From: Eledone cirrhosa
Taxonomy: Eukaryota
NCBI GenBank assembly: GCA_964016885.1
Contig: OZ024763.1
Location: 28,272,001-28,336,000, forward strand
DNA length: 64,000 nucleotides
Direction: 5' to 3'
Part shown: piece by piece, positions 19,449 to 19,958 of the stretch
Layout of the letters: each line of letters opens with the position of its first letter
How positions within the stretch are numbered: position 1 is the first letter of the stretch
The notes under the pieces: model-generated
What the model saw: the letters and a program-made list of their open reading frames with translations, nothing else
Told to the model about the DNA's origin: nothing
The model's database searches: none
Program-made: the position numbers and the translations under genes

Positions 19449-19630
19449 CGTTATTCCGGGTTGAATCGGAGGTAACCACAGTAAGTAAGTTACTCAATAC
19501 ATTGCAGAGTATAAAAGTTTTAATATAGATGAGATTCTACAGGACTAGAACTGTTTCATTCTTTAGAAATCATCAGGAATCTCCTGATGATTTCTAAAGA
19601 ATGAAACAGTTCTAGTCCTGTAGAATCTCA

Positions 19631-19639
<9 letters not shown>
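19449..19639 (-). mobile_element. (TA)n-embedded fold-back mini-element with hammerhead (family B)
   Basis: Perfect 58-bp inverted repeat (19521-19578 / 19582-19639) plus a ~70-bp tail; TA tracts on both sides; homologous copies at 6598 and 49931. Confidence 0.8.
19531..19583 (-). ncRNA. Type I hammerhead ribozyme motif (family B)
   Basis: gagattc CTGATGA t-ttc-taaa-gaa-t GAAA cag-ttctagtc-ctg TA gaatctc: perfect 7-bp stem I, 4-bp stem III, GUA site. Confidence 0.8.
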
Positions 19640-19706
<67 letters not shown>

Positions 19707-19708
19707 AA

Positions 19709-19958
19709 ATGAAGTAATTCCGTCGGAAAAGTCCAGGAAAGAAGAGTGCTCTATGTAGGTAACAGAGCTTAATAGTTATGTAATAAACAACATAAGGCAA
19801 TTATTCCATTTACCAGTGGTTTCTTAAAAGCAAAAGATTTTGCTTTCAATCCTCAGAATGAAAAAGCAGACCAGGATTTTTTCATTGAAAGCAAAATCTT
19901 TTGCTTTTAAGAAACCACTGGTAAATGGAATAATTGCCTTATGTTGTTTATTACATAA
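19709..19958 (-). mobile_element. Fold-back mini-element with hammerhead (family C)
   Basis: Perfect 75-bp inverted repeat (19776-19850 / 19884-19958) plus a ~65-bp tail, between microsatellites. Confidence 0.8.
19804..19863 (-). ncRNA. Type I hammerhead ribozyme motif (family C)
   Basis: tttcatt CTGAGGA ttgaaagcaaa-atct-tttgcttttaa GAAA cc-act-gg TA aatggaa: 7-bp stem I, 11-bp stem II, GUA site. Confidence 0.85.

Follow-up and report, generated by a model that had tools for sequence, protein, structure and literature searches.

What kind of insertion leaves behind a short inverted repeat with a ribozyme motif inside it and a unique tail on one side only? The question is raised by the window, i.e. 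the whole 64,000-nucleotide stretch of Eledone cirrhosa DNA analysed here, where family 1 (19449-19639) and family 2 (19709-19958) each form an inverted repeat. The first has perfect arms of 58 bp (19521-19578 and 19582-19639) around a spacer of 3 nt, the second perfect arms of 75 bp (19776-19850 and 19884-19958) around a spacer of 33 nt. An earlier sequence-only reading called both adjacent elements perfect palindromes; the lengths and the perfection of the arms were confirmed, but the 33-nt spacer of the 75-bp element is non-palindromic. The unique 3' tails, given there as 65-70 nt, measure 72 nt in family 1 (19449-19520) and 67 nt in family 2 (19709-19775), and the flanks of both elements are (TA)n or (TG)n.

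From left to right, a (TA)n target tract (19436-19448, read from the sequence) abuts the tail end of family 1. The family 1 tail arm (19449-19582, minus strand) runs from element position +1 at 19582, the predicted transcription start, to +134 and is the pLTR end of a Hydra-clade Penelope-like element (PLE). Its unique tail, on the same strand, lies between candidate proximal and distal start sites, with a small hairpin right after the proximal one. At -1 (19583, minus strand) a cap-like G replaces the native C; it doubles as part of a 2-nt overlap with the short inverted arm (19582-19639, plus strand), which covers +5 to about +62 without most of the 5' strand of stem I. The two elements are separated by (TA)n and then (TG)n (19633-19706). 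Family 2 consists of a tail arm (19709-19865, minus strand, tail included) and a short inverted arm (19867-19958, plus strand) preceded by a non-native G (19866). This short arm starts 11 nt further 5' in element coordinates than the tail arm, has lost the hammerhead core through a 9-nt deletion, and ends at (TA)n (19959-19975). Two more families have the same polarity, as had been stated: a family E copy (41561-41760, plus strand; its short arm spans 41561-41618, its tail arm begins with +1 at 41619, and the 3' half of the hammerhead only is present) and a family D copy (42541-42886, minus strand; tail arm 42541-42753 with +1 at 42753 and a G at -1, short arm 42755-42886, the core in each arm).

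A type I hammerhead motif is complete on the minus strand only, in family 1 by direct reading (19532-19582; core CUGAUGA at 19576-19570, predicted cleavage after 19538) and in family 2 by script (19804-19863; core CUGAGGA, predicted cleavage after 19811). That only one strand holds a complete ribozyme is correct for these two families, but not for D, with the core in both arms, nor for E, in which neither arm has the 5' half of the core. The family 1 motif comprises a 6-bp stem I, CUGAUGA, a stem II opening with a U.U pair in place of G10.1-C11.1, GAAA, a 4-bp stem III and GUA; among 64 copies it varies mainly in loop II. Conserved core and three stems of a type I hammerhead are thus present in families 1 and 2, and self-cleavage is predicted. 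An Rfam scan of the window gave no hammerhead at the gathering threshold, and the family 1 motif is not the minimum-energy fold (z -0.12). The hammerheads of D and E, read by eye, are what we take to be U3-A8 core variants. In E, the TATA box and the predicted start lie, by eye, inside a long loop II, and the computed fold shows stems I-III. Such enclosure was seen at L339:500-600, L222, L227 and L225, the last an E-related copy with an altered yet still paired stem II. A further type I hammerhead motif, its stem III a palindromic TATATA, lies on the minus strand of the window at 43318-43373.

Other repeats were noticed in the window. Just left of family 1 (19340-19430) lies a piece of another abundant repeat, by eye the tail of a further hammerhead-bearing family found at locus L200. 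Older copies of families 1 and E, several of them palindromic, occupy 6595-6714 and 49929-50079, and 5001-5090, 28217-28274, 43460-43630, 44253-44313, 53952-54145 and 54519-54692. An abundant SINE-like repeat, presumably a cephalopod SINE, is found at 20040-20230 and 29190-29596, and 7302-7840 is a tandem array with an 80-bp unit that contains a 27-32 bp palindrome and a TA tract.

Parent elements

Exact matches to the tail patterns numbered 7,011 in the genome for family 1 (40-nt pattern), 16 for family 2, 21,375 for E and 5,602 for D, and none for reversed controls; with 7,011 matches against 0, the family 1 structure is far beyond chance. Some copies are uninverted and continue upstream into shared sequence, and a few continue past the tail into an ORF. 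At L050/L091 the order is inverted arm, pLTR, tail and then a reverse transcriptase (RT) ORF with RWR, DKT and YRDDG, the family 1 parent. Other family 1 copies have a CxCX5C linker (intact at 6 of 11 loci shown) plus GIY-YIG at the C-terminus, with CCHH absent. Locus L339, an E copy of pLTR-ORF-pLTR structure, has an intact 718-aa ORF of the family 1 type, again with the linker intact; this protein is 52% identical to that of family 1 over 465 aa, and the E unit is about 3.1 kb long. Families 1 and E share RWR (R for K), DKT, and CxxC and CxH by a conserved E and N. Pfam gave no match for the family 1 and E proteins, whose RT and GIY-YIG rest on motifs. The D parent has RT and GIY-YIG by Pfam (RVT_1, 1.4e-06; GIY-YIG, 4.7e-07) together with a CX4CxxC linker and CCHH, which set it apart from the Hydra clade; from linker and CCHH we assume it to be Neptune-like. 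Families 1 and E are assigned to the Hydra clade because their features match those listed in section 11 of PMC8557442. Judged by these features, the element at 19449-19639 is the pLTR end of a Hydra-clade PLE, the E parent belongs to the same clade, and the D parent is another C-terminal GIY-YIG PLE. The likeness to inverted 5' copies of Penelope insertions, pointed out in the sequence-only reading, has gained substance from these parents with RT and GIY-YIG.

Further traits of EN+ PLEs accompany the single ORF with RT and GIY-YIG (seen by motifs in families 1 and E, by Pfam in D). The pLTRs stand in partial tandem at L339. An inverted, 5'-truncated copy of the 5' end and a one-sided tail are present, with an adjacent inverted arm in 46 of the 90 family 1 copies. 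The pLTR contains a hammerhead (families 1 and 2; D and E as core variants by eye), and insertion, as in the Hydra clade, is into (TA)n, (TA)3 lying within 10 nt of the tail anchor in 85/90 family 1 copies. In family 1 the ORF is linked to the 5' pLTR alone, the 3' link being masked by long microsatellites; a 3' pLTR was not found within 1.5 kb of the ORF ends at 12 loci. At L346-L356, a conserved stretch of 170 nt closes the family 1 ORFs and leads into long TA/TG tracts; the family 1 3' UTR thus seems to include a target microsatellite of its own. A different PLE-type RT with GIY-YIG lies beside family 1 copies at L091:206-1533 and upstream at L055.

For family 2, no parent ORF was found in the seven loci translated. 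Its native copies continue into a TG/TA-rich body, and a related pLTR lies about 1.2 kb upstream; the family is likely non-autonomous and may be retrozyme-like. In L079 a GIY-YIG fragment lies upstream of family 2; it is missing from other copies and was rejected as the parent. One chimeric copy (L063, G000:C26, about 2152600-2152900) combines an E short arm, a G with E positions +1 to +7, and then a family 2 tail arm, a hint that family 2 RNA can be mobilised by E-type machinery and that, in rare cases, each end can draw on a different RNA.

Turning points of the palindromes

Copies were sampled in genome order rather than by palindrome similarity. The family 1 set comprises 90 copies from the first 100 listed of the 7,011 matches; the D (57) and E (88) sets combine listed places with copies encountered in other fetched loci. 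In native copies a TATA-like box starts at -30 (family 1), -30 (D) or -29 (E), i.e. +1 is the A that lies 30 nt (family 1, D) or 29 nt (E) past its first base. Transcription start at +1 is a prediction from motifs and junctions only.

The inner ends of the arms meet a wall close to this position. In two-armed copies, the 5'-most end falls within -2 to +8 in 34/41 (family 1), 14/16 (D) and 34/40 (E), and beyond -5 in 3/41, 0/16 and 0/40, respectively. By eye, the hammerhead core begins at +7 (family 1), at +43 (D) or, for E, at a place upstream of its TATA box; the palindrome centres correspondingly lie at the 5' edge of the hammerhead in family 1, about 40 nt before the core in D and inside loop II in E. 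As the ribozyme is placed differently in the three families, the wall follows the predicted promoter and not the ribozyme. Centre positions are non-random, tracking TATA and initiator in families 1, D and E. The statement that the inversion falls at or within the 5' part of the hammerhead describes family 1 but neither D, with its centre upstream of the core, nor E, in which no arm has the 5' half of the core. Nor does the wall lie at the cleavage site: only 5/141, 3/87 and 7/143 arms in three sets end within 3 nt of it. In family 2, a TATA-spaced wall was looked for and none was seen in about 10 usable copies; its inner ends are scattered, four of the roughly 10 lying at a TTTTAAAA micro-palindrome. 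At L246, a D RT fragment is fused directly to the D promoter at -25, by an internal jump or a deletion.

These positions bear directly on the model put forward in the sequence-only reading, in which cDNA synthesis begins in the tail, is halted by the ribozyme structure and then folds back. The start of cDNA synthesis at the tail end is supported. A stall would fit the coincidence of the family 1 wall with the hammerhead 5' edge, the 3 of 100 rows of the family 1 G survey (see below) that are joins through stem I, and the family 2 centres near the core in the window. It is, however, largely refuted for D and E, where the wall keeps to TATA and initiator. Moreover, an enzyme travelling 3'->5' along the RNA would run into the structure at +51, a position at which few arms stop, and both the G and the short arms that exceed tail arms would be left unexplained. 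We regard a stall at the ribozyme as very unlikely.

The same sample bears on whether the palindrome might transpose intact as one fixed unit, MITE-like or as a hairpin element. When the palindrome served as query, all 30 retrieved loci did have the centre of the window copy, but this set was selected by the query itself, and because the query selects the same centre we left it out of the family 1 counts. Position-ordered copies vary in centre, spacer and outer end, and 24 of 79 continue uninverted into the promoter; a fixed unit is scarcely credible. An artefact of assembly or library fold-back has, in our view, a negligible probability: perfect palindromes beside microsatellites are hard to assemble, but the ends lie at fixed element positions across many unrelated loci, the flanks are unduplicated, the arms differ by deletions and substitutions, and the same structure has been described for PLEs of other animals in the literature considered here. 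Contigs from three runs of one sample gave short repeat pieces only at the locus, none spanning it, and carry no weight either way.

Extra G, unequal arms and the template

The turning point often bears a G that is not native to the element. Hand counts of G covered the first 100 rows listed in which the base before +1 is non-native; nearly all of these rows come from contig C1. Family 1 has G at -1 in 77/100 (first 100 of 1,894 matches) and, at a control position before +7, in 7/100 (Fisher p 1e-25). E has 84 G against 16 A, with about 33% G expected from base content. The excess is weaker in D than in family 1 and E (51/97 in the first 100 listed rows minus 3 native; about 20% expected from base content). 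Where the junction leads directly to TA-like flank, G is present in 13/15 (family 1) and 8/10 (E). Many of the Gs, that of the family 1 copy in the window included, could derive from the opposite arm or from AG/TG flanks. In L1 insertions an extra G marks capped 5' ends, as described in the relevant part of PMC11702581.

The G is found on either arm. Among 40 family 1 loci with a G row (40 of the first 47; omitted were 4 already in the set, 1 near-duplicate and 2 stem-I joins), it belongs to the tail arm in 21 and to the short arm in 19. Six of these 19 short arms are without a partner arm in the 60 nt shown, and two are joined to tail arms of just 17-20 nt. In E, nine loci have a G on both arms, seven of them with a spacer of 0-1 nt (first 100 listed rows). 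The junction type of the family 1 copy in the window was found in both orientations (4 and 2 loci).

The arms are also unequal in both directions. By a margin of more than 2 nt, it is the short arm that extends further 5' in 16/41 (family 1), 5/16 (D) and 12/40 (E) and the tail arm in 12/41, 10/16 and 10/40, and in an additional 5, 4 and 12 copies the seed is missing from the tail arm. The family 2 copy in the window is an example of a short arm that is longer at its 5' side. Secondary deletion at palindrome centres could explain some of this asymmetry. The outer ends are fixed: 45/51 at +60/+67/+73 in family 1, 49/58 at +61 in E, 19/30 at +164 in D and 9/10 at one site in family 2. Small hairpins (z -1.3 to -3.1) directly follow the proximal sites in families 1, 2 and E, and others follow the distal sites in E and family 1; in D a start-site hairpin was looked for and none was seen. 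At polymorphic sites both arms have the same allele in 33/33 family 1 copies (50% expected), 40/40 and 38/40 in E, and 9/10 in D. Allele sharing rejects two different source RNAs as the rule, and is also compatible with fold-back or later gene conversion.

Could a single cDNA produce all this? A tail-primed cDNA might reach the capped 5' end, snap back and serve as its own template as far as a fixed site. There a nuclease nick or TA microhomology would join it to the other target end, and later deletions at the centre would produce the asymmetry. This would account for the identical alleles, for the wall at +1 and for Gs that lie on tail arms, as well as for the junction in the window with its 2-nt overlap and 3-nt loop, and the relevant section of Craig et al. 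(PMC8557442) attributes the tail to endonuclease-mediated resolution. The short-arm G at 19 of 40 loci, the solo short arms and the tail arms of 17-20 nt beside full short arms speak against it; so do the seven E loci with G on both arms, where the spacer is too tight for a priming loop, and the two orientations of the window's junction type. A fold-back copy cannot hold bases absent from the tail cDNA unless these were deleted later, and the simplest reading is two cDNAs on one capped RNA. With short arms that often have sequence missing from the tail arm, carry the G equally often and occur alone, the fold-back part of the sequence-only reading is not upheld, and we consider snap-back unlikely.

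In our judgement the elements are probably short pLTR insertions of PLEs in (TA)n, in which both ends of one DNA cut prime RT on a single capped RNA, and the RNA 5' end is where the resulting cDNAs become joined head-to-head. The pLTR promoter would give a capped transcript from +1, and the GIY-YIG nuclease would cut both strands of (TA)n. One cut end would prime at the distal site (+134 in family 1) and the other at a proximal site (+60/+67/+73), the 'tail' being the gap between the two. Both cDNAs would pass through the uncut hammerhead to the cap, which would be copied as an extra C, and their 3' ends would be joined bluntly, via microhomology of 1-5 nt or with the addition of a few bases, either arm often having been trimmed beforehand; the ribozyme would be a passenger during this step. 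At the sequence level, this two-cDNA reading is supported by the parents, the two classes of fixed outer ends, the inner-end wall 29-30 nt past TATA, the extra G on either arm and the shared alleles. Against two-ended priming stand family 2, half of the finding, which is without a TATA-spaced wall, and D, with the tail arm longer in 10 of 16 copies. One template under two overlapping cDNAs would need strand displacement.

A tentative extension, which we hold possible rather than probable, sees the palindromes as failed strong-stop products. RT would start 60-140 nt from the cap and normally transfer to the 3' end of hammerhead-cut RNA through a short matching repeat, regenerating the pLTR in a retrovirus-like but target-primed manner; where the transfer fails, the two cDNAs would join. 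With the E TATA box and start within loop II, the ribozyme could fold only in the 3' copy, which strikingly fits this strong-stop reading.

Comparison with known systems

PLEs are the closest relatives of telomerase reverse transcriptase. How they come by inverted copies and tails is an open question according to the relevant parts of PMC8557442 and PMC3846280. The architecture itself is already known: inverted 5'-truncated copies, tails, pLTR hammerheads and (TA)n targets have all been published for PLEs in the literature considered here. What the present families add is junction evidence for turning at a predicted capped start and for priming from both target ends, points that the same literature, as far as considered here, leaves open or explains otherwise. 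The stubs turn at the predicted transcription start, often with an extra G, which suggests that both cut ends copy the same capped RNA. Thousands of young insertions yield exact coordinates for a model with capped sense RNA, two fixed starts and extension of both target ends. Such a model would replace the antisense self-priming proposal, let PLE promoters be mapped from genome sequence alone and account for tens of thousands of short palindromes in the genome (7,011 + 21,375 + 5,602 exact tail matches); it is a likely answer to how PLEs make inverted copies.

Among the closest systems is the Hydra clade of C-terminal EN+ PLEs (Craig et al. 2021, PMC8557442). As described in the relevant section, it shares with families 1 and E RW[K/R], DKT, CxCX5C, the lack of CCHH, and CxxC and CxH near the end, and likewise hammerheads, (TA)n targets, the inverted 5'-truncated copy and the tail. 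Differences lie in the E unit of about 3.1 kb and in tail length, with 61-77 nt here versus 30-40 in that paper, whose account, in this section, does not extend to the turning points of the inversions and names inverted-repeat formation as open.

In the Penelope palindromes of Adineta vaga (Arkhipova et al. 2013, PMC3846280), head-to-head pLTRs, an optional tail, and TATA and initiator in the pLTR recur. The published reading of this same geometry, in the part considered, is self-priming on an antisense transcript, whereas the junctions seen here point to a capped sense template. Antisense self-priming predicts neither a wall 29-30 nt past the sense-strand TATA nor an extra G 5' of the sense strand, and for the present families we find it highly improbable.

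Animal non-LTR retrozymes (bioRxiv 10.64898/2026.07.22.740005; PMC7229834) also have short type I hammerhead repeats tied to PLE pLTRs. Retrozymes are tandem non-coding monomers, whereas the repeats of families 1, D and E are ends, solo or palindromic, that belong to coding elements, and hence lie outside that class.

Palindrome formation would work like twin priming, yet not in the form known from L1. In L1 twin priming, what becomes inverted is an upstream stretch of the RNA, without overlap. Here both cDNAs would span the same 5' segment (+1 to +60 is duplicated in the arms), with a palindrome as the result. Common to both, as far as the L1 data considered from PMC11702581 go, are two primers per RNA, an end-joined inversion junction and an extra G at capped ends.

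A further close system is the Anolis Poseidon PLE, studied in vitro (Frangieh et al. 2024, PMC11167929). In the relevant parts of that study, which do not address inverted copies or the RNA 5' end, both target strands are cut and extended, initiation takes place at two internal sites bounding the tail, and uncut RNA is used, behaviour with which the two-cDNA reading agrees. No start-site difference between strands was observed for Poseidon, whereas here the short and tail arms use different sites.
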